Shown here: positions 1 to 32,124 of the stretch, in pieces
Numbering within the stretch: position 1 is the stretch's first letter
How the letters are laid out: each line of letters opens with the position of its first letter
Assembly: GCA_963692865.2 (NCBI GenBank)
Contig: CAXXHI010000002.1
Span: 1 to 32,124, forward strand
Reading direction: 5' to 3'
Origin: a bacterium
Lineage (GTDB): Bacteria > UBA8248
DNA length: 32,124 nucleotides
Notes under the pieces: model-generated
What the model was told of the DNA's origin: nothing
The model's database searches: none
What the model saw: the letters and a program-made list of their open reading frames with translations, nothing else
Translations under genes and position numbers: made by a program

Positions 1-1
1 G

Positions 2-974
2 GAACACGGCGGTCTCGAATGGACGACCGACCTGGATGCAGCACTTTCGAATTCGGAATATCCCGTCTTCTTCGATGCGGCGGCCACGCATCTAAGGGTG
101 GACGTGCTACAGCGCGCCATCGCCGCGGGAAAGCACATCTATACCGAAAAGCCCGTCGCGCCCAGCGTTCAGGAAGGGATGAGCCTCCTGCACGCGGCGC
201 AGGCCAAAGGCCTCAAGCACGGCGCGGTGGAGGACAAGCTCTTCCTGCCGGGGTTTCTGAAACTCAGGCGAGTCGTTGAGAGTGGTTTTCTGGGCCGGAT
301 CATCGGTTTTCAGATCAACTTCGGCTGGTGGGTGTTCGACGGGGTCGAGGCGGAATGCCAGCGTCCGAGCTGGAACTACCGGAAAGCGGGCGGCGGCGGC
401 CTTATATCGGACATGCACCCCCACTGGCGCTACGTCGTCGAGGGAACCTTGGGACCGATTGCGCGCGTGGCCGCGCTCTCATGGACGGGCCAGACCGAGC
501 GCGCCGACGAGGCGGGCGAGCGCTTCCGCGTCGACGTAGAGGACAACGCACACACGCTTTTGGAACTCGAAAGCGGGGCGCGCGGGGCGATTCTGAGTTC
601 CTGGTCCACCCGTGTGAGGCGCGAGGACTCTGGTGACCTTCCAGGTGGATGGAACCGATGGCTCAGCAGTTGCGGGTTTGAGACGCTGCTGGAAGCAGGC
701 GGCTGTCGATACGCCTTTGGTGCGCGGCTTTCTGATGGGGCGCGACGCGGACACAATGGACGTTTCGGTGGATTACCAAGAGAACTGGGAAGAATACCCC
801 GATTCTGAGCCTTACAAGAATCCCTATCGCTATGGCTGGGAGCGCTTCATCCGCCACGTGGCGGGCGATGAGCCCTTCTACGCCGATCTCTCCGCAGGCA
901 TCCGCGACGTAAGGCTCGCCGAAGCATGTCTCCAAAGCGCGCAGGAGGGCGGTTGGGTGGATATGACGCGATGA
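2..974 (+). CDS. Gfo/Idh/MocA family oxidoreductase (5'-truncated by window; +1 frameshift at ~629)
   Basis: Frame open from base 2 (EHGGLEWTTDLDAAL...). Contains the GKHIYTEKP motif and GGGGLISDMHPH. ORFs 98..808 and 633..974 join as RRED-LVTFQVDG if the extra T at 629 is removed. Confidence 0.85.
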
Positions 975-993
975 CGGGTGGCTGTTTTAAGTC

Positions 994-1485
994 TCAGCCG
1001 ATAGGGTCCCGCCCTCCGCCGTGGTTCGTCACTTCCGCGTCATTCAGTTGCACGTAGGCCTGCGCGAGGACGACCGCGGCGGTGTTGGCGAGGTTGTAGG
1101 AGCGGATCGGCCCCGGCATGGGCACGTAAATCCGCCGCTCGGGCCAGCGCGCGTGCCACGCATCGGGCAGCCCGGTGTTTTCGTTCCCGAGGAGCAGTAC
1201 GTCTTCGTCTTTATATGAAACTTTATCGAAGCGCGATGCGCCGAACTTCGTGATGAGCCAGGGCGTTCTCCCGCCCAGCCATTCGAGGAAGAGCGCTTCG
1301 TTCTCGTGGACCGTGAGCTTCACGGCGGGCCAGTAATCGAGCCCTGCTCTTTTGAGAGAACTGTCCGAAAAATCGAATTTCGCAGGCTCGATGATGTGCA
1401 GATGCGCATCCATCCCCACGCACAGGCGGCCGATGTTCCCGGTGTTCTGCGGAATCGCGGGATGATAGAGAGCGACGTGGAGCAT
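994..1485 (-). CDS. trmL: tRNA (cytidine(34)-2'-O)-methyltransferase, SPOUT family
   Basis: PAIPQNTGNIGRLC, LKRAGLDYW, LLGNENTGLP and IRSYNLAN motifs; 163 aa. Confidence 0.9.
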   Translation of the reverse strand: MLHVALYHPAIPQNTGNIGRLCVGMDAHLHIIEPAKFDFSDSSLKRAGLDYWPAVKLTVHENEALFLEWLGGRTPWLITKFGASRFDKVSYKDEDVLLLGNENTGLPDAWHARWPERRIYVPMPGPIRSYNLANTAAVVLAQAYVQLNDAEVTNHGGGRDPIG

Positions 1486-1526
1486 TTGATACTATTCGTA
1501 AGCCCAGGAGCCTAAACCGATCATGC

Positions 1527-2840
1527 TCACGAAACGGCGCCGCGAACGCTCGCCTTGTCTACCGCGTCGGTGAGGATGTCCATCGCCTGATCCATCTGGC
1601 CTTCCGTCGTCGTGGCCGGCGGCACGAAGCGAAGGACGCTCCCCCCGCGCCGCTGGCTGAAGATGAGTCCGTTCTCCAGGCACCTGCGGTTGATCTCGCT
1701 ACCCTGTCTGGTGGCGGGCGTTTTCGTGCGCCTGTCCTCCACCAGTTCGATCCCCTGCAGAAGGCCCCGGCCCCTGATGTCGCCCACCATTTCATACTGT
1801 TCGCCCAGCCAGGTGAGGCGCTCTCTCAGGTGAGCGCCGATTCTTCTCGCCTTGGCGGGCACGTCTTCCTGTTCGATGACGTCGAGGCTAGCCACGCCTG
1901 CGGCGCAGGCGAGCGGGTCGTTGGTGTGGGAGTGGGTGACGACGAACTCGGTGGACGCTATCTTCTCCTCCACCTCGGCGCTCGTCGAGACCGAAGAGAT
2001 GCTCACGCCTCCGCCGAAGTGTTTCGCCAGCGTCACGACGTCGGGCACCACCTCGTCCTTCTCGAAGCCGAACATCGCGCCCAGCTTGCCGAGCCCCGTC
2101 TGTTCGTCGTCCACGATGAGGAGCATGTCGCGCTCCTCGCAGTTTTGTTTCAGCTTCTTGAGCCATCCGGGCGGCGGCTCCACCACCCCGCCCGCGCTGA
2201 ACAGGGGTTCGGTGATGACGGCGGCGGGCTTGCTCGTCGTTTGCGCGTCGATGAGCTCGAAGCTCGTGTCGAGACAGGCGATCTCGCAATCCGGGAATTT
2301 CTGGGCGAGCGGGCAGCGGTAGCAGTAGGGCGCGACCATGGCCATGCTGCCGGGCGAGAGCGGCCCGTGTCCGCTGTGCCAGCCCGCGAAGGTGAGCGAG
2401 CGCGCCGTGTCGGAGAGTCCGTGGAAGCTGATGTGGGGGCTCGCCACCTCGAAGCCGTCGGTGAATTTGCGGGCGATCGTCACCGCCGCCTCGTTGGCGT
2501 CTGCGCCCGAACCCAGAAACAGGCTCTTCTCGAGTGGGGGCGGAAGCAGCGCGCCCAGGCGCTCGGCGAGTATGATTTCCTGATCGTTGAAGAAACTGCT
2601 GTGCGCGTGGATCAGCTCATCGCAGCTTTTCTTGATGGCGTCCGTGACGGTGGGGTGGTTGTGCCCGAGGGCGGAGCACATCTGGCCCGAGTTGAAATCG
2701 AGGTATTGCTTGCCGTTCACGTCCTCGACGGTGGAACCCTCGCCGCGCACGAAGACGGGGCCCGAGAAAACCGACTTGTCCACCCGCCCGCGAAAGCTGT
2801 ATTTCTTGGCCGAATCGAGCAGGTCTTTTTCGCTTCGCAT
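1527..2840 (-). CDS. Class III PLP aminotransferase, 2,2-dialkylglycine decarboxylase-like
   Basis: YLDFNSGQMCSALGHNHP, SFHG, LIVDDEQTGLG and TLAKHFGGG (PLP lysine); GGAGG RBS upstream. Confidence 0.85.
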   Translation of the reverse strand: MRSEKDLLDSAKKYSFRGRVDKSVFSGPVFVRGEGSTVEDVNGKQYLDFNSGQMCSALGHNHPTVTDAIKKSCDELIHAHSSFFNDQEIILAERLGALLPPPLEKSLFLGSGADANEAAVTIARKFTDGFEVASPHISFHGLSDTARSLTFAGWHSGHGPLSPGSMAMVAPYCYRCPLAQKFPDCEIACLDTSFELIDAQTTSKPAAVITEPLFSAGGVVEPPPGWLKKLKQNCEERDMLLIVDDEQTGLGKLGAMFGFEKDEVVPDVVTLAKHFGGGVSISSVSTSAEVEEKIASTEFVVTHSHTNDPLACAAGVASLDVIEQEDVPAKARRIGAHLRERLTWLGEQYEMVGDIRGRGLLQGIELVEDRRTKTPATRQGSEINRRCLENGLIFSQRRGGSVLRFVPPATTTEGQMDQAMDILTDAVDKASVRGAVS

Positions 2841-3083
2841 GGGAATGCCTCCATGGATCGGCTCAGGAGCCGCTCGTTGCGCTCCGCCCGCCGATGCGGT
2901 TTTCCCGGCCGGAGCCGCGCTCCATGAAACGATGAGATATGCTTTAATACTAGCGCATATTCATGGATTCGGATATGGCTTATCATCAAGCCATGAGGCG
3001 AAAAGTCTTCCACCGATGCTTCGCCCGTGAACGCACGTGATTGCGCGAGTCATGGGGCGTGACTTCCGGGAGGGTGGTTTCGA

Positions 3084-4632
3084 ATGAACATGGCGGAGTT
3101 TTTGGCCCGGGCGGCCAGTGCTTGTGGAGAGCGTCCAGCCATATCTTTGGGCGAGGCGGTTTATTGCACGTATGAGACGCTCGCCTGCAGGGCGGCCTCC
3201 ATGGCGGGTTATCTAAGGAACGAACTTGGAATGAAGCCCGGGGACCGAGCCGCCATCACCATGAAGAACTGCCCGGCGTTTCTGGAGGTCCTCTACGCCA
3301 TCTGGCATGCGGGCTGCTGCGCATTGCCCATCAACGCCAAACTTCACCCCAAGGAGATGGCCTTCATCCTCGAAAATGCGGGCGCGCGCTGCTGTTTCGC
3401 CACCTCCGATCTCTTGGAAACGGTCGCGCCGCTCGTCGCTGAAATCGAGATGCTCGAAAGCGTGATGGAGGTCGATACCCCCGAATACCGGGCGATTCAG
3501 TCCCGAGAAGCCGTTCCCATCGAACCTCAAGCGCCGGATGATTTGGCCTGGCTCTTCTATACGAGCGGCACGACGGGCAGGCCGAAGGGCGCCATGCTCA
3601 CGCACCGGAACCTCCACAACATGTCCCTGAGCTATTTCGCCGACGTCGATCCGGTTTCAGAGAACGATTGCATCCTGCACGCCGCGCCCTTGTCTCACGG
3701 CTCGGGCCTGTACGCGATACCACACGTCTACAAGGGCGCGAACAACGTCGTTCCCGAGAGCGGGGGGTTCGAGCCCCCGGAGATTTTTCGGCTCATCGAG
3801 GCCTACCCGGGCCTCGCCATGTTCGCCGCGCCCACGATGGTGACGCGCTCTGGTTCAGAGCGAGGCGATCAAGAACGCGGATACGCGGAACCTCAAGACC
3901 ATCGCCTATGGCGGCGGGCCGATGTACCTGGAAGACCTTAAAATGGCGATGGAGGCGCTGGGGAACAAGCTCGTTCAGGTATACGGGCAGGGGGAAAGCC
4001 CGATGACCATCACGGTCGTCTCCAGAGAGCGGCACGTCGATACGCAGCACCCCCGCTTCGAGGAGCGGCTCGCCTCCGTCGGAGTGCCGCATACCGTGGT
4101 CGAGGTGCGCGTTGTGGATGCCGAGGACAACACACTGCCGCCGGGAGAGACCGGCGAGGTGCTCGTGCGCGGCGACGTCGTCATGAAGGGTTACTGGAAC
4201 AACCCCGAGGCCACGGCGAGTGCGCTCAAGGGCGGGTGGCTTCACACGGGCGACGTGGGCGTAATGGACGAGGACGGATTCCTCACCCTCAAGGATCGCT
4301 CCAAGGACCTCATCATCAGCGGCGGCAGCAACATCTATCCCCGCGAGGTGGAGGAAGTGTTGCTCCGCCACGAGGGCGTTCTGGAGGTTTCCGTCATCGG
4401 GCGTCCCCACCCTGACTGGGGAGAGGAGGTCATGGCGTTCGTGGTGCGCAAGGATGGGCCAGAGGTGAGCGAGGAAGAGCTCGACGGCTTGTGTCTCGAA
4501 CACATTGCGCGCTTCAAGCGTCCCCGGGCGTATCGTTTCATTGAGGCCTTGCCCAAGAACAACTACGGGAAAGTTCTCAAGACGGCGCTTCGGGAGATGG
4601 TGGAAGGCGATTCCCGCGAGAGCGATGAATGA
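3084..4632 (+). CDS. AMP-binding acyl-CoA synthetase (+1 frameshift at ~3849)
   Basis: YTSGTTGRPKG, YGQGE, WLHTGD, DRSKDLIISGGSNIYPREVE and PKNNYGK motifs. The halves join as VTR-LVQSEAIK if the extra T at 3849 is removed. Confidence 0.9.
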
Positions 4633-6008
4633 TGAAGCCGGGCGCAGGGCCGGGCGTGGATGAGATGAGATTTTCATGCCTCCGCCGAGCATATACATCG
4701 GGCGAGCAGGCGCCTGTGGGCTTGGTTCGTAAGGTTTGTGCTCGAATCGCCACGCGCGGCGAGGACGGCGTATGGATTCACTTGGAGCCCGAAGATCAAT
4801 TACTCGCGCGCGCGCAAGAGCTGGAGGCCCGCAGTGCGGATAAGGATGAACTTCCGCTATTCGGCGTTCCCTTTGCGGTGAAGGACAACATCGACGTCGC
4901 GGGCGTTCCGACGACGGCGGCGTGCCCCGAATACGCCTATACGCCGGATGAGAGCGCTCCCTGCGTGGCGCTTCTGATCGACGCAGGGGCGATTTTCATC
5001 GGAAAGACGAACCTGGATCAGTTCGCGCTGGGTCTCGTCGGCGTACGCACGCCCTATGGCGTGGCCCGGAATCCGTTTCACGCGGACTACGTTCCGGGTG
5101 GTTCGAGTTCGGGCTCGGCCGTGGCCGTCGCGGCGGGCCTGGTGAGTTTCGCCCTCGGCACGGATACGGCCGGCTCGGGCCGGGTGCCCGCGGGGTTCAA
5201 CAACATCGTGGGTCTCAAGCCCTCCCGGGGACTGGTGAGCGCGCGGGGCGTGGTTCCCGCCTGCCGCACGCTCGATTGCGTATCGGTCTTCGCTCTCGAG
5301 GCTGCGGACGCGCTCTGCGCGCTCGATGCGATGGCCGCGCCCGATGAGGACCCGTACAGCCGCGCGCTTCCGGCGGGAGCTTCCCTGGCGATGACCGACT
5401 TGCCGAGGGGACTTCAGGCCGGGGTTCCTCTCCCCGGACAAAGGGATTTCCTGAAAGACGTTGAGGCGCAAATCGCCTATGAGAAAGGGATCGAGCGGGT
5501 CGCACAGATGGGCGCTGTTGTACGGGAGGTCGATTTTTCGCCTTTTTTTGAGGCGGCGAAACTCCTCTACGGCGGCCCCTGGATGGCGGAGCGGCTGGCG
5601 GCGATTGAGGAATTTATCGGGGCGAAGCCCGAAGCCCTCCATCCCGTAACGAGGGAGTTGATCGCGGGCGCCGCCCGCTACTCGGCGGTCGATGCCTTCC
5701 GGGCCTTCTATCGACTGGAGGAATTAAAGCGCGATGTCAGGCAAGCCTGGGAAGGCATTGATTTTATGTTCGTTCCAACGACGCCCACGTCCTACAAGAT
5801 TGAGGAGGTGAATGCCGACCCTGTGGCTTTGAACGCGAACCTGGGGATGTATACGAATTTTGTGAATTTGCTGGATTTATGCGCCATCGCCGTCCCGAAC
5901 GGTTTTTATGCGAACGGGCTGCCCATCGGGATGACCCTGCTTGCGCCCGCTTTCAGGGAGGGATTCCTCTGCGCGGTGGCGGAGGAATTTTTATCGGGGG
6001 AAGGTTAA
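4629..6008 (+). CDS. atzF: Allophanate hydrolase-like amidase (amidase domain only)
   Basis: FAVKDNIDVAG, GKTNLDQFALGLVGVRTPYG, PGGSSSGSAVAV, GTDTAGSGRVPAGFNNIVGLKP, LLYGGPW and LGMYTNFVNLLD are typical of AtzF. Exact start is uncertain. Confidence 0.8.
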   Translation: MMKPGAGPGVDEMRFSCLRRAYTSGEQAPVGLVRKVCARIATRGEDGVWIHLEPEDQLLARAQELEARSADKDELPLFGVPFAVKDNIDVAGVPTTAACPEYAYTPDESAPCVALLIDAGAIFIGKTNLDQFALGLVGVRTPYGVARNPFHADYVPGGSSSGSAVAVAAGLVSFALGTDTAGSGRVPAGFNNIVGLKPSRGLVSARGVVPACRTLDCVSVFALEAADALCALDAMAAPDEDPYSRALPAGASLAMTDLPRGLQAGVPLPGQRDFLKDVEAQIAYEKGIERVAQMGAVVREVDFSPFFEAAKLLYGGPWMAERLAAIEEFIGAKPEALHPVTRELIAGAARYSAVDAFRAFYRLEELKRDVRQAWEGIDFMFVPTTPTSYKIEEVNADPVALNANLGMYTNFVNLLDLCAIAVPNGFYANGLPIGMTLLAPAFREGFLCAVAEEFLSGEG

Positions 6009-6054
6009 GATCGATGAGAATGAAAATGAGAAAATTTTTCGTGGAGGATATCCG

Positions 6055-6954
6055 ATGAAGCGACTGGGTTTTGTAGGCGTGGGAGCGATGGGCGGCCGCA
6101 TGGTGCCGCATCTCATCAAGGCGGGCCATGAAGTGGGCGTGGTGGACGTCGTCCCGGAATCTGTGGAGCGCGCCGTTTCGCATGGCGCCTTCGAGGCATC
6201 CGGCCCTGCGGAACTCGCCTCTACGTGCGAAATCGTACTCACCTCCCTTCCTACGGGAGCCGAGGTGGAAGAGGTATTCATGGGCGAGGGCGGCCTCATG
6301 GAAGCAGTCGGTGAGGGCGGCTTGCTGGTCGACCTCTCCACCATCGAGCCCGATCAGAGCCGCAAACTCGCCGCCGAAGCGGAAGAACGCGGCGCCGTGG
6401 CGCTCGATGCGCCCGTCTCGGGCGGGGTGATGGGTGCTGAGGCGGCGAGCCTCACCATCATGGTAGGCGGCCCGAAAGAGGCGTTCCAGACGGCGCGGCC
6501 CGTTCTGGCGCTGCTGGGGCAAAACATCATCCACGTCGGGGGATACGGCGCGGGGCAGGTAGCGAAACTCTGCAACAACCTCATCGCGGGCGTCACCATG
6601 GTGGCGGCGGCGGAGGCGTTCGCCATGGGCAAGGCGTCGGGCGTGGACACCAAGATTCTCCACGAGGTGATCCGCACGAGCAGCGGGGGAAGCTGGGTGA
6701 TGGAGAAAGACCCGCCGTGCGCCGGCCTCATTGAGGGCGCGCCTTCGAGCAAGGATTTCGAAGCGGGCTTCACGGTGGATTTGATGCTCAAGGATATGTC
6801 CCTGGCCGTTTCCGCCCTGATGTCCCTGGGAATTCCGTGCCCTGCCGGCGCGGCGGCGAACCAGGTCTACCGCATGGCTTCGCGCGATGGCCTGGGGGAT
6901 CTGGATTTCGCCGCTGTGGCGATGCTGACGGGAGCGGCGGAGCGTCCCCGATGA
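6055..6954 (+). CDS. NAD(P)-dependent beta-hydroxyacid dehydrogenase (3-hydroxyisobutyrate dehydrogenase-like)
   Basis: GFVGVGAMGG, DAPVSGG, AKLCNN and GFTVDLMLKD motifs; GGAGG RBS before ATG 6055. Confidence 0.85.
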   Translation: MKRLGFVGVGAMGGRMVPHLIKAGHEVGVVDVVPESVERAVSHGAFEASGPAELASTCEIVLTSLPTGAEVEEVFMGEGGLMEAVGEGGLLVDLSTIEPDQSRKLAAEAEERGAVALDAPVSGGVMGAEAASLTIMVGGPKEAFQTARPVLALLGQNIIHVGGYGAGQVAKLCNNLIAGVTMVAAAEAFAMGKASGVDTKILHEVIRTSSGGSWVMEKDPPCAGLIEGAPSSKDFEAGFTVDLMLKDMSLAVSALMSLGIPCPAGAAANQVYRMASRDGLGDLDFAAVAMLTGAAERPR

Positions 6955-7022
6955 GCGGCGTATTGCAGGAATATGCCTGACGGCGCGAAGCGCGCTGATT
7001 GGCTGATCGAAGGAGTAATCTG

Positions 7023-8360
7023 ATGGAAGAGAGCAATCCAGCCCAACTGAGCGCCTTTCGCGCGGCGCAGGCGATACGCGAAGGCGAATTGACATCGGAG
7101 GAACTCGTAGGGGCTTGCTTGGCCCGCATTGCGGAATGCGAGGAGCAAATCGGCGCCTGGGAGCACCTGGATGAGGAATTCGCCCTGAGGCAAGCCAGAG
7201 AGGCCGACCAAGCCAGAGGGAAAGGGGAGACCCTCGGTCCTCTGCACGGGGTTCCCGTCGGGATCAAGGACATCATCGACACCGCCGATCTTCCGACCGA
7301 GAACGGTTCCATACTTCACGCGGGCCGCCGGCCCACCGAGGACGCCGCCGTCGTATCCCTGCTGAAAAGCGCGGGCGCCGTCATCATGGGCAAGACGGTA
7401 ACGACGGAGTTCGCCGTCTATCACCCCGGCAAAACGAAGAACCCCCACGATCCGAACCGCACGCCCGGCGGTTCGTCGAGCGGTTCCGCCGCCGCCGTCG
7501 CCTCCCACATGGTTCCCGTGGCGGTGGGGAGCCAGACGAACGGGTCGACCATCAGGCCCGCCTCGTTCTGCGGGATATGCGGGTTCAAGCCCACGCACGG
7601 CTCGATTTCGCGCTACGGCATGCTGCCGCAGTCGAGGCCGATAGACCACGTGGGCCTTTTTGCGCGCACGGTCGAGGATCTCGCCTTCCTGGGGGATCAG
7701 GTGATGGTATTCGATGCGCACGACCCCGATATGCGGCCGCACGCGGCTCCGAGACTGCTGGAAGTCGCCGCCTCCGAGCCTCCGGTCGCACCGCGTTTCG
7801 CGTTCGTGAAAACGCCCGTCTGGGATCAGGCCGAAGAGGACGCGCATGCGGCCTTCGAAGGATTGGCCGAGCGGCTGGGCGAAGAGGTCGTGGAGGAGGT
7901 TGAACTCCCCGACCCCTTTAACAGCGCGATCGAGTGGCACCAGGTCATCCTGGAATCGAACCTCGCGCGGAACTTCGAGACGGAATACGAGCGCGGAAAA
8001 GACCAGTTGAGCGACCTTTTGCGCCTGATGATGGAGCGCGGCAAGAAGTTTCTCGCGGTAGACTACACCCGGGCGGTGGAGAAGGTGCCCGTACTGAACG
8101 GTTTGCTGGGAGAGATGTTCGCACGCTACGACGCCCTGCTCACACCACCTGCGCCGGGCCAGGCGCCGCTCGGGCTGGGCGCGACGGGCAATCCCGTTTT
8201 CTGCACCATCTGGACCTTGTGCGGAACGCCGGCCGTCACGCTTCCCCTGCTGGAGGGCGCGGACGGGATGCCGCTCGGCGTGCAACTCGTAGGCTCCAAG
8301 GGAGACGACGCCAGGCTGCTCCGGACGGCGAGGTGGCTCGAATCCCGTCTCGGCGGGTAA
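7023..8360 (+). CDS. Amidase signature family protein
   Basis: GVPVGIKD, GKTVTTEFA, PGGSSSGSAAAV and GSQTNGSTIRPASFCG; AGGAG RBS before ATG 7023. Confidence 0.9.
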   Translation: MEESNPAQLSAFRAAQAIREGELTSEELVGACLARIAECEEQIGAWEHLDEEFALRQAREADQARGKGETLGPLHGVPVGIKDIIDTADLPTENGSILHAGRRPTEDAAVVSLLKSAGAVIMGKTVTTEFAVYHPGKTKNPHDPNRTPGGSSSGSAAAVASHMVPVAVGSQTNGSTIRPASFCGICGFKPTHGSISRYGMLPQSRPIDHVGLFARTVEDLAFLGDQVMVFDAHDPDMRPHAAPRLLEVAASEPPVAPRFAFVKTPVWDQAEEDAHAAFEGLAERLGEEVVEEVELPDPFNSAIEWHQVILESNLARNFETEYERGKDQLSDLLRLMMERGKKFLAVDYTRAVEKVPVLNGLLGEMFARYDALLTPPAPGQAPLGLGATGNPVFCTIWTLCGTPAVTLPLLEGADGMPLGVQLVGSKGDDARLLRTARWLESRLGG

Positions 8361-8474
8361 TCTGCGAGGATGCAAACAGCATCAGGAGTCCATGCAGGCT
8401 TTCGCGATTGCGCCGGAGACTCCGGCCCGCGTCTTGTTTCGTATCCATCAATTACCAATAGGGAGGCTTAGACG

Positions 8475-9374
8475 ATGAGCCGATCCGTCGCCTTTATCGG
8501 AACCGGCATCATGGGCAAGCCCATGGTGTTGAACTTGCTGAAAGCAGGGCATTCGGTGGCCGTCCACAACCGCAGCAGGCCACCTCTGGAAGAATTGGGA
8601 GAGGCGGGCGCCGTCGTTTGCGGGTCCGCATCGGAAACGGCTTCCAGGGCCGAAGTCATCATCACCTGCCTCCCCGATTCCCCCGACGTCGAGCTTGTCG
8701 CCCTGGGCGAGGGAGGCGTCATCGAAGGAGCCAGTGAAGGCTCTCTCTACATCGACATGAGCACCATCGCTCCGGGCGTCTCCAAGAAGGTGGCGGGGGT
8801 TTTGGGGGATAAGGGCGTGCGCATGCTCGACGCTCCCGTGAGCGGGGGCGACGTGGGCGCCAGGGAGGGCACGCTCTCCATCATGGTGGGCGGTGCTGCG
8901 GCGGATTTCGAGGATGCGCTCCCCGTCTTCGAAGCGATGGGGAAGACCATCGTCCACGTGGGCGAGAACGTGGGCGACGGCGGGTACGTGAAGATCGCGA
9001 ATCAGATCATGGTGGGTCTGCACATCGCCGCGATGAGCGAGGCCCTGGTGCTGGGCTCGAAAGCGGGAGTGAATCCCGAAAAAATGATTGCAGCCCTATC
9101 AGGCGGCCTTGCGCAATCCCGTGTGCTGGAGTTGCGCGGGCCGAACCTGGTGAAGGGCGAATACCCGCCGGGCTTCCGGATTCGCCTGCACCGGAAAGAC
9201 TTGCGACTCGCGATGGAGGCGGGAGCGGAACTGGGCGTGGCGATACCAGCGGCCGGGCAGCTCTATCAGATGTTCACGGCGCTTCTGGCGGCGGACCGCG
9301 GGGAGTTGGACCACAGCGGCTTCGCCACCCTCATCGAGGACCTCGCCGGACATAGGGTCTGCGATACGGACTAG
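8475..9374 (+). CDS. 2-hydroxy-3-oxopropionate (tartronate semialdehyde) reductase-like dehydrogenase
   Basis: FIGTGIMGKPM, LPDSPDV, DAPVSGG, KIANQ and PGFRIRLHRKDL (GarR/GlxR-like); GGAGG RBS. Confidence 0.8.
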   Translation: MSRSVAFIGTGIMGKPMVLNLLKAGHSVAVHNRSRPPLEELGEAGAVVCGSASETASRAEVIITCLPDSPDVELVALGEGGVIEGASEGSLYIDMSTIAPGVSKKVAGVLGDKGVRMLDAPVSGGDVGAREGTLSIMVGGAAADFEDALPVFEAMGKTIVHVGENVGDGGYVKIANQIMVGLHIAAMSEALVLGSKAGVNPEKMIAALSGGLAQSRVLELRGPNLVKGEYPPGFRIRLHRKDLRLAMEAGAELGVAIPAAGQLYQMFTALLAADRGELDHSGFATLIEDLAGHRVCDTD

Positions 9375-9380
9375 CTTTAC

Positions 9381-9661
9381 GGGACTGTTGGAAAAGCTCT
9401 TGTGGATAGGTCGGGATTCTATCGTAGGGGCGGCCCCCCGTGGCCGCCCGATTTCACGGAGGCCTCCTCCACGTGGGAGAATACGCAGGTTCTACCCTGC
9501 ACCATGAATAGTGACCGTAGGAGTTGTTCGAGAACGGCCCCTACAAGATTGGCAGACCGGCGCGGGTGTCGGACAGGCACGGGGGCCTGTCCCTACGGAC
9601 CTCCCACCCCTGTTGGTTCCATTCGCAAAATCTCGAAATCAGGGCCTTTTCCAACAATCCC
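9381..9661. mobile_element. Putative MITE-like element containing GTAG-type REP hairpins (copy 1)
   Basis: 16-bp terminal inverted repeats matching 15/16 (gggactgttggaaaag at 9381; cttttccaacaatccc at 9646-9661). Internal gtaggggcggccccccgtggccgccc and ggacaggcacgggggcctgtccctac hairpins. Confidence 0.65.
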
Positions 9662-26357: not shown

Positions 26358-27116
26358 TCAGAAAATTACGGCGACTCCCTCGTAGTTCATGACGAGGAGG
26401 ATGGCGCCCATGAGGAACAGAACAGCCGTGACGATACGGAAGAACGCCTGATCCGAGAAGATGTTGTATATCTTCGTGCCCACGAAAAAGCCGAGCAGCA
26501 CGGGCGTCGAGAGGATGAGGATGAGCCACAGGGCCGTCTCGCCGATGTAGCCCGCCGCCGCGATGGAGGCGATGGCGGCGACGCGGAGCACCACCTGGCT
26601 TGCGCTCAGCACGAAGAGGTAGCGCTCCTTGGAGATTTTCATCCCCGTGAGATAGGAGGCGATGACGTGGGATGGGATGTTGATGGTGCCCAGCATCAGT
26701 CCCGCGACCGCGCCCATGCCCAGTGAGCGCTTCAGCGAATCCTCGGGATCAGGCTTTTCGGGCCGGCTCCATTGCCAGACGATCTGACAGATCAGGAAGG
26801 CGCCCAGGATGAATTTCATCAGGCGCGGATCCGTGTTCAGGAGAATCGTGAGGCCGGCGGCCAGACCCACGAGGCTCATCGAAAAGAAGGGAACAAAGGG
26901 CCGCAAGCCTTCGTGGACGGCGGCGCGCGTTCGCCAGGCGTTCATGAGGCTCGTGCACAGGGTGGGAATGGAGATGACGGCGATGGCCGTGGGCAAATCC
27001 CAGAAAATGGCCACGGTGGGCGTCGTCAAGGTGGCGAAGCCGAATCCGCCCACGGCTTTGAGGCCCGAGCCGACGAAGGCGGCGCAAAAGGCGAGTATCA
27101 ATGCGAGTGGGTTCAA
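26358..27116 (-). CDS. Sulfite exporter TauE/SafE family membrane protein
   Basis: GSGLKAVGGFGF N-terminal motif and about 8 hydrophobic segments; GGAGG RBS before TTG 27116. Confidence 0.8.
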   Translation of the reverse strand: MNPLALILAFCAAFVGSGLKAVGGFGFATLTTPTVAIFWDLPTAIAVISIPTLCTSLMNAWRTRAAVHEGLRPFVPFFSMSLVGLAAGLTILLNTDPRLMKFILGAFLICQIVWQWSRPEKPDPEDSLKRSLGMGAVAGLMLGTINIPSHVIASYLTGMKISKERYLFVLSASQVVLRVAAIASIAAAGYIGETALWLILILSTPVLLGFFVGTKIYNIFSDQAFFRIVTAVLFLMGAILLVMNYEGVAVIF

Positions 27117-27217
27117 GGCGCCTCCGCTTGGAAAACCTGCGATACATCGTCCTGAATGGCTCGAAGAGCGGCCAAGCATATTTCATAAACGGAAATCTGT
27201 AAATTAAGCGGGCAACC

Positions 27218-27247: not shown

Positions 27248-27371
27248 GCTCCCCGATTCCTGATGCGGGAAACCCGAGAGTCGCGTTTTTTTCGTCTTGA
27301 GAATCGCCTTGCGGGCCGCCCGAGAGGAATTCACCCAAGCGAGTTTCGCGCAACGAAGCCGGGGATTTTTT

Positions 27372-28442
27372 ATGGACTTTTCGCTTTTTTACATTCTGTA
27401 CCGTCCCGAAGATATGACCGAGGCCCGGGTTCATGAGGATATGCTCACGGAAAGTATACTGGCGGACGAGTTGGGCTATTCGTGCGTATGGTACGCCGAG
27501 CATCACTTCTCCCGCGTCGGGATGATTCCCGATCCCCTCCTGATTTGCGCCGCCGTGGCCCAGAAGACGAAAAAGATACACGTGGGCACGGCCATTTCCA
27601 TCATGTCGTTCCACGATCCCATCCGGCTGGCCGAGCAGGCCGCCATGGTCGATCTCCTGAGCGGCGGCAGGCTGGAGTTGGGCGTGGGGCGCGGCTCCCA
27701 GCCCAAGGAGTTCCAGGGATTCGGCGCCAAGCCGTCCGAGAGCCGCGAGCGCTTAAAAGAGGGGCTCCATGTTCTCTCCCGCCTTCTCGAAGGGGAGAAA
27801 GTGACGTTCCAGGGGCGGTATCACAGTTGCGAGGACGTGGAAATCTTCCCCAAGCCCCTGCAAAAGCCGAGACCCCCCATCTGGCTGGCGGGCACGAGCC
27901 CCGAAACCTACACCTATGCGGGCGAGAACGGCTTCAAGGTGATGGCCTCGGCGGGCTTCACGGGGCCCGAAGTGTACAAGCAAAAGTTCGGGCTGTATGA
28001 GGACGCCATCCGAAAATCGGGCGGCGACCCCGCCGGAATCGAGAGGCCGCTCGTTCACCACATCCACGTGTGCGACGCGGCGGATGCGGAAGAATACTTC
28101 AACCTGACTGTAGAAGGCGAGGGCGAATACCTGCGCTACCGGGCGAAGATGAACGAGGTGGAGATGCCCGAGGACGAGGCGAAGCACCTGAAGCGCAACT
28201 GGAGCTATGAGCTGAACGTCGAGGAGATCGTCAGGGGCGGCGGCATCATCGCCGATCCGGGAGCCGTCGCGGAGGATATCTGCAGGCTGCGCGATGACTA
28301 CGGGGTCAATCACGTCATCCTGGCGCCCTGGCGCGGGCCGGACCACGCCTCGGTGATGCGCTCGATAGAGAGCTTCGCGAACGACGTCATGCCGCTGGTG
28401 AACGCCGCCGCGCCCGCCGCTTCGAACGGCAGCAACGCTTGA
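27372..28442 (+). CDS. LLM class (luciferase-like) flavin-dependent oxidoreductase, paralogue A
   Basis: WYAEHHF, HDPIRLAEQAAMVDLLSGGRLELGVGRG and PKPLQKPRPPIW motifs. Confidence 0.9.
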   Translation: MDFSLFYILYRPEDMTEARVHEDMLTESILADELGYSCVWYAEHHFSRVGMIPDPLLICAAVAQKTKKIHVGTAISIMSFHDPIRLAEQAAMVDLLSGGRLELGVGRGSQPKEFQGFGAKPSESRERLKEGLHVLSRLLEGEKVTFQGRYHSCEDVEIFPKPLQKPRPPIWLAGTSPETYTYAGENGFKVMASAGFTGPEVYKQKFGLYEDAIRKSGGDPAGIERPLVHHIHVCDAADAEEYFNLTVEGEGEYLRYRAKMNEVEMPEDEAKHLKRNWSYELNVEEIVRGGGIIADPGAVAEDICRLRDDYGVNHVILAPWRGPDHASVMRSIESFANDVMPLVNAAAPAASNGSNA

Positions 28443-28482
28443 TGTCATCTTCTTTTCCTGAACATTCTGGAGGCGCTTTTTC

Positions 28483-29463
28483 GTGGGTATGAGTTTTAGT
28501 CTTCACTTGGTGCCGGACGACATCCGGCTCGTGGCGCAGCGTTCGAAATACGCGGAGGACAACGGTTTCGAACAGGTCTGGATAGCGGAGAGCCACCTCA
28601 CCTGCCGGGATCACAACGTCGCGCTCGCCCTGGCGATAGAGAACACCTCGCACGTGAAAATCGGCCCCGGCGTGACGAACCCGGTGCTGCACGACGACAG
28701 CGTGGCGGCGAGCGCCATCGCCACGCTCGACGAACTCTCGGGCGGCCGCGTGCTGTTCGGCATCGGCTCGGGAGACACGCCCGTCTACACGCTGGGAAAG
28801 AAGATGGCCAGACTCGCCCGGATGCGCGAGTCCATCGCGGCCGTTCGCGCGTTCACGCGCGGCGAGACGGTGGAATACGCCGAAGGCGTGAACGTGAAGA
28901 TGTGGTGTGAGCGCGATATCCCCATCTACACCTCCGCCGAAGGCCCGAGGACGCTCGCCATGTCGGCGGAGGTCGCCGACGGCGTCATCGTCGGTTCGGG
29001 CGTCTACCAGGAGACGGTGGACTGGGTGATGAAGTACCTGAACGAGGGGATGGCGAATCGCGACGCCTCTCTCGGGGAGATGGACGTCATATTCGGCGCG
29101 GTCGTCTCGGTGGACACAGACGGCGTGCGCGCGCGCGAGAAGGTGCGGGCGCGGGTGGCGAACCGCGCGCACCACAACTTCCGCATGACGCTCGACTCGG
29201 TGCCCGACCCGTTCAAGCCAGAGATTCAGAACCTCCTCGACAACTTCGACGTGAGCAACTGGCGGGATCCCAAGCACGTGCCCCTCATCACCGACTACAT
29301 TCTGGACCGTTTCACCATCACGGGAACGCCCGAGCAGTGCGTCGAGCGCATCCAGGAAATCGAGTCCTACGGCGTCAAGAGCATCATGATCGACCCGCCG
29401 GTCCAGGATTTCGACGAATCGCTCAGAATGTTCACCGAAGAGGTTTTGCCCAGGTGCGTATGA
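28483..29463 (+). CDS. LLM class oxidoreductase, Mer-like (possibly F420-dependent)
   Basis: WIAESH, IGPGVTNP, ATLDELSGGRVLFGIGSGD and GPRTLAMSAEVADG resemble methylene-H4MPT reductase-like LLMs. Confidence 0.8.
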   Translation: MGMSFSLHLVPDDIRLVAQRSKYAEDNGFEQVWIAESHLTCRDHNVALALAIENTSHVKIGPGVTNPVLHDDSVAASAIATLDELSGGRVLFGIGSGDTPVYTLGKKMARLARMRESIAAVRAFTRGETVEYAEGVNVKMWCERDIPIYTSAEGPRTLAMSAEVADGVIVGSGVYQETVDWVMKYLNEGMANRDASLGEMDVIFGAVVSVDTDGVRAREKVRARVANRAHHNFRMTLDSVPDPFKPEIQNLLDNFDVSNWRDPKHVPLITDYILDRFTITGTPEQCVERIQEIESYGVKSIMIDPPVQDFDESLRMFTEEVLPRCV

Positions 29464-29511
29464 TCGCATCCGGGGCGCAATCGAAAGTCTTTTTCTTATG
29501 AGGAACCAAAA

Positions 29512-29910
29512 ATGGCGCTGATACCCGAATCTCATGCAGGCATTCTCGACACCAAGGCCCTCCTGTATCTGGGAACCCAGAACAAGGACGGCTCTCCCCA
29601 GGTCTCTCCCGTGTGGTTCGGGACCAACGGGGACATCATCGAGGTCAATTCGGCCAAGGGGCGTCTCAAGGACCTGAACATGCGCGCGCGTCCCAAGGTG
29701 TCGATGGCCATCGTCGACCCCGAAAACGCCTACAGGTGGGTGGGGTTGCAGGGCACGGTGGTCGAGATAACCGAGAACGGGGCGGAAGAGCACATCGACG
29801 CCCTGGCGAATAAGTACCTGGGCGTGGACAGCTACCCGAACCGTCAGGCGGGGCAGGTGCGCGTCATCTACCGCATCCGGGCGGACAAGGTGTTCACGAT
29901 GGGCGCGTAA
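29512..29910 (+). CDS. PPOX class (split beta-barrel) putative F420-dependent oxidoreductase
   Basis: DGSPQVSPVWF, GRLKDLNMRARPKV, DPENAYRWVGLQG and HIDALANKYLG match the Rv1155-like pattern. Confidence 0.85.
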   Translation: MALIPESHAGILDTKALLYLGTQNKDGSPQVSPVWFGTNGDIIEVNSAKGRLKDLNMRARPKVSMAIVDPENAYRWVGLQGTVVEITENGAEEHIDALANKYLGVDSYPNRQAGQVRVIYRIRADKVFTMGA

Positions 29911-29955
29911 GCCGCCACGCGCACACGATTTTTGCAAGGGATGGAGACCTGAAAG

Positions 29956-31011
29956 ATGAAATTCTCGCTTTTCTATATTCCTGCCTGTCAGGAAGGGGAG
30001 ACCTATCAGCGCGAGTTCGATCTGCTGATCGAACAGTGCGAGGTGGCCGACGAGCTCGGCTACGATACCGTGTTCCTGGCCGAGCACCACTTCTCCCGCG
30101 TGGGCATGTGCCCCGACGCCCTGATGGTCGCGCTCGCCATCGCGCAAAGAACGAAGAAGATACGGATCGGCACCGCCATCTGCATCATGCCCTTCCACAA
30201 TCCGGTGCGCCTGGCCGAACAGGCCGCTCTGGTCGACGTGCTGAGCGGCGGTCGCCTGGAGTTGGGCGTGGGCCGAGGCTCCCAGCCCAAGGAGTTTCAG
30301 GGCTTCAACATCTCACCGTCTGAGAGCAGGGAGAAGATGCAGGAGGGCCTCGAGGTGATGACCCGCCTGCTGGAGGGGGAATGCCTCACCTTCCACGGGA
30401 AGCACTACAGTTGCATCGACGCGGAGATTTTCCCGAAACCCGTCCAGAAGCCGCGCCCTCCCATCTGGCTGGCCGGCACGAGTCCCGAAACCTACGTCTT
30501 TGCCGGAGAGAAGGGATTCAACATCATGGCGTCGGGCACCTTCAAGGGTCCTGACGTGTATCTGGAGAAGATGACGCTCTTCCAGGAAACCGTGCGGAAG
30601 CGAGGCGGCGACCCGAGCAATTATCCCTCACTCATGGCGCACCACGTCCACGTGTGCGACGACCCCGAGCACGCCTGGAAGCAGATCGAACCCTCCGAAT
30701 CGTGGTATCTCTCCTACCGCAGCGCGGTGAACGCCATCGAGATGCCGCTGGAGGAGAAAGAGGCGCTCAAGCGCAACTGGAGCTACGACGTCGACATCCG
30801 CCAAGTCATCGAGGGCGGCGGCGTCATCGGCTCGCCGGATAAGGTGATCGCCGACCTCAAGCGGCTCCAGAAGGAGTTCAAGGTGAACCACATCATGATC
30901 TTCGTGCTGCGCGGCATCGCCCAGGACGAGGCGATTCAGTCGATAGAGCGGTTTGCGGAAGAAGTGATGCCCGCGTTCGCAGAAGAGCGCGCGGCAAGTT
31001 CAAGCGAATAA
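29956..31011 (+). CDS. LLM class (luciferase-like) flavin-dependent oxidoreductase, paralogue B
   Basis: FLAEHHF, HNPVRLAEQAALVDVLSGGRLELGVGRG and PKPVQKPRPPIW motifs. Confidence 0.9.
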   Translation: MKFSLFYIPACQEGETYQREFDLLIEQCEVADELGYDTVFLAEHHFSRVGMCPDALMVALAIAQRTKKIRIGTAICIMPFHNPVRLAEQAALVDVLSGGRLELGVGRGSQPKEFQGFNISPSESREKMQEGLEVMTRLLEGECLTFHGKHYSCIDAEIFPKPVQKPRPPIWLAGTSPETYVFAGEKGFNIMASGTFKGPDVYLEKMTLFQETVRKRGGDPSNYPSLMAHHVHVCDDPEHAWKQIEPSESWYLSYRSAVNAIEMPLEEKEALKRNWSYDVDIRQVIEGGGVIGSPDKVIADLKRLQKEFKVNHIMIFVLRGIAQDEAIQSIERFAEEVMPAFAEERAASSSE

Positions 31012-31035
31012 CGTTTGTTTCAAGGAGAACGGAGA

Positions 31036-31635
31036 ATGTGGATATCCCCATTAAGGCTGAATGACGCCCAGGAACCCGCGCGCGGGATTCTCGAGGGCAT
31101 CCGGGCGAAAAGAGGCGCGGTGCCCAAACTGCTGCTCACGATGGCGCGCAGGCCCCAGGTCCTGAACGGGCGCCAGACGATGAACATGGCCGTCCACGGC
31201 GGCAATTCGACGCTGGGCCAAAGGCGCGAGGAGTTGATCTCCTACTACGTCGCCACCATCGGCGGGTGCTATGGCTGAACGATGAACCATGGCCAGGCTT
31301 TCCGTGCTGAAAGCGGCGACGACGTAACGCTGGCCGACGTGGCCACCGTGGTGACGGACAGGGACGATTCTCCGGCTCTCGACGATGCGGACAAGGCGAT
31401 GCTCGCCTTCGCCGAAAAACTCACGTTCGACCACTACGCCATGAGCGAGGCGGACCTGGACGCGCTGCGCGAGGCGGGGTTCTCAGATGAGAACATATTG
31501 GACATCATCGGCTCCGTCTCGTACCGGAACATGAGCAACCGGCTGAATCTGGCGCTCGGCCTCGACGCGGTCGAACCCGAAGGCCCCGATGAGCTGATGG
31601 AGGTGGTGCGCTTTTCGAGAACCGCGCGGGCTTAA
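31036..31635 (+). CDS. AhpD/carboxymuconolactone decarboxylase family peroxidase-related protein, probable selenoprotein (CxxU; TGA at 31276-31278, codon 81)
   Basis: ORFs 31015..31278 and 31282..31635 share a frame and are separated only by TGA. The joined 199-aa protein reads REELISYYVATIGGCYG-U-TMNHG...AMLAFAEKLT...LREAGFSDENILDII...NMSNRLNLALG. Confidence 0.8.
31297..31314 (+). promoter_or_regulatory. Candidate bacterial SECIS hairpin
   Basis: GCTTTC-cgtgct-GAAAGC stem-loop starts 18 nt after the TGA, with G at loop position 2. ggccag/ctggcc could form a lower stem. Confidence 0.45.
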
Positions 31636-31753
31636 AAACGTATTTCCGCTCGCCGGCCCCACAACGCCCGGCCGGTGATTAACAGGCAAATTCGCCATCG
31701 TTCATTTGCGCCCCCTTGCGGGCCGCGAAACAACCCAGAAAGGAAGGGTTTCC

Positions 31754-32124
31754 ATGCCAGACCTCACCATCCGTCCGCTGAACTGCGGCACCATCCATAC
31801 GGATTATTCCAATATGGTGTATTGGACGAATTTCGGGACGAAACTCGAGATTCCCTCGTTCATCTACATGATCGAGGGGGCGAAGGACCACGACGGGAAA
31901 GACGTGAAAATCGTCGTCGACACCAGTTTTCTGGACCCCGAGCGCGGCGGCGCTCCCTGGCCCGCGAGCCGGGAGCCCGGCCAGGGCGTGCGCGAACAGT
32001 TGGAAGGCGCGGGCTGGAAGCCCGAGGAAGTGGACATTCTCATCCTCACTCACTTGCACTGGGATCATTCCCAGAACTGCGATCTGTTCACCAACGCGAT
32101 CAAATACGTGTGGGCGGAGGAGCT
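31754..32124 (+). CDS. MBL-fold metallohydrolase, N-acyl homoserine lactonase-like (3'-truncated by window; absent from ORF track)
   Basis: Translated manually: MPDLTIRPLNCG...IVVDTS...ILILTHLHWDHSQN (HxHxDH); AGGAAGG upstream. Confidence 0.85.
   Translation, partial: MPDLTIRPLNCGTIHTDYSNMVYWTNFGTKLEIPSFIYMIEGAKDHDGKDVKIVVDTSFLDPERGGAPWPASREPGQGVREQLEGAGWKPEEVDILILTHLHWDHSQNCDLFTNAIKYVWAEE

Follow-up and report, generated by a model that had tools for sequence, protein, structure and literature searches.

The window, a DNA stretch of 32,124 nucleotides that makes up the whole of contig C3, was found to carry an AhpD-like gene close to its 3′ end. The coding sequence (31036..31635, forward strand) is a single frame of 199 codons, UGA-81 included, followed by TAA. 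The one internal TGA of this frame is located at 31276-31278, where the surrounding residues read G-C-Y-G-[TGA]-T-M-N-H. Using translation table 11, the same region is listed as two open reading frames on the forward strand that are in frame with one another, at 31015/31036..31278 and 31282..31635. A Shine-Dalgarno-like AAGGAG (31022..31027, forward strand) can be seen in the sequence 8 nt 5′ of the ATG at 31036, and the start Met is kept among the orthologues of the gene. An earlier note on this DNA had described two in-frame open reading frames parted by one TGA, and its coordinates, codon number, and protein length of 199 amino acids were all found to be correct.

The gene is preceded by a flavin-dependent oxidoreductase of the luciferase-like (LLM) family (29956..31011, forward strand; PF00296, E value of 1.1e-63), which ends 24 nt before the start of the AhpD-like coding sequence. 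Three LLM genes (PF00296) are found in tandem directly upstream, at 27297-31011 on the forward strand. The middle LLM protein is most similar to models for F420-dependent methylene-H4MPT reductase and the outer two to the MupA/Atu3671-type FMN monooxygenase, all with scores below the model cut-offs. A gene for a TauE/SafE exporter lies on the reverse strand at 26358-27179. Downstream, a gene for a lactonase-like protein of the metallo-β-lactamase (MBL) fold (31754..32124, forward strand; PF00753) is truncated by the end of the window.

The read-through protein was matched by the NCBIfam model TIGR01926 (“peroxidase-related enzyme”, AhpD-like) with a score of 112.8 bits, relative to a curated cut-off of 81.8, over residues 2-177 of 199. 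The Pfam model for the CMD domain (PF02627) also matches the read-through protein, with an E value of 1.9e-6. Five AhpD/peroxidase-related proteins of solved structure (PDB 6k40, 3c1l, 2pfx, 2prr, and 2oyo) were matched with E values from 2.8e-19 to 1.1e-13, and the alignments run unbroken over the TGA. The best of these is 6k40 (E value of 2.8e-19), for which residues 11-176 are aligned. The similarity to these five proteins is of full length and includes a common C-x-x-[C/U]-x-x-x-H helix, in which the proteins of known structure carry Cys instead of the UGA/Sec of the window protein; in the alignments to 6k40 and 3c1l, the TGA falls on the second Cys of the C-x-x-C-x-x-x-H helix. The redox motif of the window protein can be written as C78-Y-G-U81-T-M-N-H85 (C-x-x-U-x-x-x-H; 31267..31290, forward strand) from the translation and from the alignments with homologues and PDB entries. 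The earlier note had placed the TGA at the second Cys of the CxxC..H motif, and this position was borne out in an alignment of 13 of the 36 full-length database matches, where Cys occupies the TGA column in 13/13 homologues and His85 is invariant. Two existing models, NF041238 (“AhpD_rel_CFYUT (seleno)protein”) and NF053654 (“YciW-related (seleno)protein”), describe CMD-fold (seleno)proteins with a CxxU-type site and are similar to the window protein in these respects. The scores of 28.1 bits against NF041238 (cut-off of 175) and 43.7 bits against NF053654 (cut-off of 310) are far below the respective cut-offs, and the window protein therefore belongs to neither model.

The database proteins that are most similar to the window protein are, with one exception, fragments. 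Of the 17 closest entries (E ≤ 1.9e-36, 49-93% identity), 15 are C-terminal pieces of 109-117 amino acids that start just past the TGA. The remaining two are a C-terminal piece of 154 amino acids and a full-length protein that is 49% identical and contains CxxC. Fragments of this kind are expected from gene callers where the genes of relatives also contain the stop. The statement of the earlier note that members of this family are often called as fragments thus holds here for 15/17 of the closest proteins. It could be argued that the gene is truly split: an 80-residue piece would end at the TGA, translation would restart at 31282 (ATG) to give a 117-residue piece, and the two would together form an AhpD-like fold that lacks the second redox residue. 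These are exactly the two frames of table 11, the second of which has its ATG 4 nt past the TGA, and a piece of 116-117 amino acids is reported by public gene calls. However, the stop would fall exactly on the column of the catalytic Cys and would delete a residue that is central to the family. Moreover, there is no Shine-Dalgarno motif within 10 nt before 31282, and Met83 is replaced by I, L, or V in 6/27 sequences, which leaves no restart codon at this position in those orthologues. The synonymous constraint downstream of the TGA and the complete Sec system, both described below, would then be coincidences without explanation. We therefore consider a split gene to be very improbable relative to the translation of one continuous frame.

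The conservation of the TGA was determined by a six-frame search of 44 genomes of the same order for loci with at least 60% identity to the window protein and exactly one TGA inside. Such loci were found in 27 genomes from three genera: the genome of the window itself (G000, with two loci), 21/22 of the other members of its genus, 4/4 genomes of the genus g8, and 1/2 genomes of the genus g5. The one member of the genus without such a locus (G013) is 79% complete, and only a paralogue was found there. At codon 81, C-Y-G-[TGA]-T-[M/I/L/V]-N-H is present in 28/28 orthologous loci, and the predicted Sec codon (31276..31278, forward strand) is TGA in 27/27 of the distinct orthologous coding sequences. 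The retention of the TGA in close relatives, which the earlier note had proposed as a check on its reading, is thus established for the 28 loci. One of these loci (L041, G023:C1:340642-341214) has lost 8 codons in frame, among them the otherwise invariant L144/R145 region, and retains the TGA and the downstream hairpin; this copy is perhaps in decay, or else the deletion is an artefact of assembly. L041 was excluded from the codon analysis on account of the deletion, and 27 distinct sequences were analyzed.

The sequences on the two sides of the TGA were compared separately. The g8 proteins are 79-82.5% identical to the window protein in the N-terminal half and 69-72% identical in the C-terminal half. 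In a comparison of the window gene with locus L048, different codons were found to encode 47/61 of the identical residues in the N-terminal half and 52/70 of those in the C-terminal half. The many synonymous and few amino acid changes in both halves demonstrate that they are coding in one frame and are under purifying selection.

The window contig is collinear over its entire length with C1:3327982-3360185 of the same assembly at 90-97.5% identity; the identity is 90% over positions 1-9395 and 97.5% over positions 9642-32124. A second copy of the AhpD-like gene is located at C1:3328474-3329070, where it is 96% identical and carries the same TGA. A true duplication was considered as the origin of this copy and was rejected since the entire 32-kb contig is collinear with C1. 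Contig C3 is most simply understood, from the sequence comparison, as a co-assembled strain variant of the C1 region.

The location of the gene on a small side contig, in an assembly with an estimated contamination of 6.7%, raises the question of whether the stop was made by an assembly or sequencing error or marks a pseudogene. The earlier note had recommended that the TGA be confirmed in reads, and the contigs of three public runs (X1, X2, and X4) all carry it. The Logan contigs of the DNA runs X1 and X2 cover 31276-31278 and do not differ from the window at the TGA or the hairpin. A contig of the RNA-library run X4 (30992-31429) also spans the TGA without a difference at either element. X4 was counted as no more than a further, third independent observation of the TGA, because expression cannot be read from contigs and RNA libraries may contain DNA. 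The differences listed nearest to the TGA in the run contigs are at 31258 and 31366. The coverage of the RNA run X17 is limited to 30700-30844, which is outside of the gene. With the TGA present in 28/28 loci of independent assemblies and in the contigs of three runs, it is not a read error; together with the purifying selection on both halves, this makes an error or a pseudogene exceedingly unlikely as the source of the stop.

The genome was searched for the components required for selenocysteine incorporation, as the earlier note had suggested, and selA, selB, selD, and tRNA-Sec were all found. The genes for selA (567 bits) and selB (392 bits) adjoin one another on contig C1, and selD (335 bits), which has an in-frame TGA of its own, is found on the same contig; the window is on C3, and thus the machinery is strictly that of the sister strain. 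The TGA of selD (G000:C1:65915-66877; L011) lies within K-A-G-G-U-G-S-K, and a strong hairpin (GGGUCC / GGA / GGACC) follows from 14 nt past the start of the TGA. Two copies of tRNA-Sec with the anticodon UCA were identified, each with a score of 76.7 bits. These are located at G000:C1:1207504-1207596 and G000:C4:29719-29811 (L017 and L018) and have identical scores. Contig C4 is a side contig of 50 kb and may be another strain-variant contig. Three metagenome-assembled genomes that are labelled Nitrospinota/Nitrospinaceae and belong to the GTDB phylum UBA8248 are placed by the BSepDB paper of 2026 in the top ten of bacteria by number of selenoprotein genes, with 48-54 each (PMC13326102).

TGA terminates 941/1863 of the long non-overlapping open reading frames on C1 and is the commonest ordinary stop codon. 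A global reassignment of TGA is ruled out by this count. It follows that the recoding at codon 81 is local and site-specific.

The mRNA directly downstream of codon 81 was examined for a candidate bacterial SECIS element. The hairpin given in the earlier note, of 6 base pairs with a G in its loop and a start 18 nt downstream of the TGA, is present as stated. The core of this hairpin (H2) consists of GCTTTC (31297-31302), the loop CGTGCT (31303-31308), and GAAAGC (31309-31314), and it is lengthened by the pairing of GCC (31292-31294) with GGC (31315-31317). The complete element, GCC + GCUUUC / loop CGUGCU / GAAAGC + GGC (31292..31317, forward strand), has a predicted energy of -10.6 kcal/mol and is a candidate SECIS element in view of covariation and synonymous constraint. 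The folding energy near H2 is ordinary: the value for an 81-nt stretch corresponds to z = -0.29, and 73/200 shuffled sequences fold equally well or better. The significance of H2 was therefore drawn from conservation rather than energy, since the constraint falls exactly where a bacterial SECIS element must lie. Among all 9-codon windows of the 27 sequences, synonymous diversity is lowest over codons 86-94, where it is 0.178 relative to a gene mean of 0.518, and a value this low was reached by 0/20000 sets of 9 codons drawn at random. Within this region, F89, R90, and E92 are each encoded by a single codon in 27/27 sequences (TTC, CGT, and GAA, respectively), whereas 3-5 different codons occur at other invariant Arg positions.

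The pairing of H2 was assessed in an alignment of 21 distinct sequences, of which 17 are orthologous and 4 are paralogous. Pairing is retained in 87.8% of 189 cells, and the 12.2% of cells that are unpaired come mostly from the paralogues. Changes on both sides of the stem were found at 2 pairs (7 cells): one is G-C to A-U, in the four rows from g8, and the other is U-A to G-U, in three rows from paralogues. The rows of this alignment are related, and the shuffle statistics consequently overstate the support. An alternative hairpin (H1; CAUGG / 9-nt loop / CCGUG; 31288..31306, forward strand) was obtained as the alifold consensus of orthologues and paralogues. The 5 base pairs of H1 (CAYGG...CCGUG) are formed in 105/105 cells with no change on both sides, and the predicted energy is -3.0 kcal/mol. 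H1 and H2 overlap and are mutually exclusive; the target of SelB would be either one or the other, and both fit the data.

The heptamer UUCCGUG (31300-31306) is invariant in 21/21 distinct orthologous and paralogous sequences (alignment A2), and the paralogue at L096 has CCAUG. The heptamer is found at an equal distance from the UGA in the window gene and in the paralogue, and it may be a SelB-contact determinant of this lineage. A scan of 30900-31800 against Rfam (E ≤ 10) returned no SECIS family; the sole match was an irrelevant L31 leader-like element with an E value of 3.8.

The computed data do not separate the possible inserted residues chemically, and the earlier note had itself allowed for “Sec (or Cys)” at this position. 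Codon 81 might be decoded in a selenium-independent way, with a near-cognate tRNA or a Cys-charged tRNA-Sec supplying Trp, Cys, or Arg. However, Cys would simply be encoded by TGC or TGT, yet TGA is found in 27/27 sequences. In addition, the conserved structured element at the distance expected for a SECIS and the Sec-dependent selD point to active SelB-dependent decoding. It is thus very improbable that the codon is read through without selenium. The conservation of the Cys column and of the TGA, the Sec machinery, the run contigs, and the constraint on the hairpin collectively support the earlier proposal that the UGA is recoded to give one redox enzyme of 199 amino acids. In our assessment the window gene very probably encodes a Sec-containing AhpD-like protein (TIGR01926/COG2128), a CMD-fold thiol/selenol oxidoreductase of 199 residues.

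The proposed sequence of events is as follows. SelB, together with Sec-tRNA-Sec, would bind an mRNA stem-loop located 13-40 nt past the UGA, and Sec would be inserted at codon 81. Sec81 is predicted to substitute for the second Cys of the C-x-x-C-x-x-x-H site of the family. The selenolate of Sec81 would then attack the oxidized substrate, which may be either a hydroperoxide or an oxidized partner protein, and a selenenylsulfide would be formed with Cys78 prior to re-reduction by a cellular thiol reductant. The AhpD from Mycobacterium tuberculosis has a CxxC...H site on a CMD fold that is comparable to that of the window protein, and its second Cys is the nucleophile. The placement of Sec at the position of the attacking residue would fit with this chemistry.

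Canonical AhpD is encoded beside ahpC and recycles AhpC. Unlike canonical AhpD, the window gene adjoins genes for LLM, lactonase-like MBL, CMD, and Rrf2 proteins. No match to AhpC was found among the neighbors in the window from 24.7 to 32.1 kb or in the L055 region from 3.7 to 6.4 kb. An LLM gene is found upstream of the selenoprotein gene in 27/27 orthologous loci, and a lactonase-like gene is found downstream in 27/27; the order LLM / AhpD-like / lactonase-like is thus present in 27/27 orthologous loci and in 0/3 paralogue loci. The full-length copy of the MBL gene in L055 is matched by models for AHL-lactonase and pyridoxolactonase with scores below the cut-offs. In this relative, which is 97% identical, the region L055:3723-6353 contains genes for the lactonase-like MBL protein of 256 amino acids, a second CMD protein of 133 amino acids, an Rrf2 regulator, and a DUF1971 protein. 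The gene content downstream in L055 suggests a redox or lactone-metabolism cluster. Our guess from this gene order is that the role of the protein may be tied to the LLM/lactonase-like cluster rather than to the recycling of AhpC.

The AhpD-like family (COG2128, CXXU) was reported in 2005 as a new selenoprotein family, with 27 sequences from the Sargasso Sea metagenome (PMC1088965), and later ranked fourth by abundance among the prokaryotic selenoprotein families of the GOS data, with 299 sequences (PMC2398784). It is included in a 2022 review (PMC9312934) and in a 2026 review, where it is given as CxxU with one Sec (PMC13188914). The description of CxxU AhpD-like proteins as a known selenoprotein class, from which the earlier note had proceeded, is thus in agreement with PMC1088965, PMC2398784, and PMC13188914. 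The window gene shares with the known family the match to TIGR01926 above the cut-off, a CxxU motif that has its single Sec at the second position, and, after the UGA, a hairpin whose apical loop contains a G. The orthologue group of the window gene does not differ from the known family in kind; it has an LLM/AhpD-like/lactonase-like gene order of its own. The only novelty for the window gene is that public gene calls store the orthologue as fragments of 109-117 amino acids. The family, with its motif and mechanism, is already textbook knowledge, and no concept is altered by the result.

A paralogue was found at G000:C1:249201-249767 (L076:1196-1795), where the predicted protein is 48% identical to the window protein and is matched by TIGR01926 with 89.4 bits. 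The paralogue gene contains two in-frame TGAs 9 nt apart, within G-G-U-Y-G-U-A-M-N-H in G000 and the consensus G-G-U-Y-G-U-A-[MVI]-N-H. Both TGAs are kept in 24/24 loci from three genera (relatives L052-L054 and L077-L096). The folding of the paralogue hairpin relative to shuffled sequences corresponds to z = +1.24 and is, as in the window gene, unremarkable. The family tables of PMC2398784, PMC13188914, and PMC9312934 list UxxU for Prx-like proteins, a mercuric-reductase-like metal-binding protein, and FmdB; an AhpD-like UxxU is absent from these tables, in which the AhpD-like family is given only as CxxU with one Sec. Our literature search returned nothing that connects AhpD with UxxU or with a diselenide, and BSepDB and the supplements of selenoproteome papers may hold this form or the orthologue encoded in the window. 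It is possible, and we propose it tentatively from sequence comparisons, that the CxxU protein of the window is one of a pair, in which the UxxU paralogue would have a potential diselenide version of the AhpD site, and that the LLM/AhpD-like/lactonase order around the window gene reflects a function in one particular pathway and not a general defense against peroxides.

The result for the window gene is, in practical terms, an annotation correction. The stored fragment is without the active site, and therefore family assignment, domain statistics, and metaproteomic searches miss the gene. The orthologue group also adds a well-supported case of Cys-to-Sec substitution at the second position of CxxC, with 27 distinct sequences and constraint at the level of the RNA. 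The UxxU paralogue is the lead that is most worth pursuit. Should a single stem-loop act on both UGAs, the pair of paralogues would constitute a natural experiment on the spacing of the SECIS element and on the reasons for which Sec takes the place of one Cys or of two.
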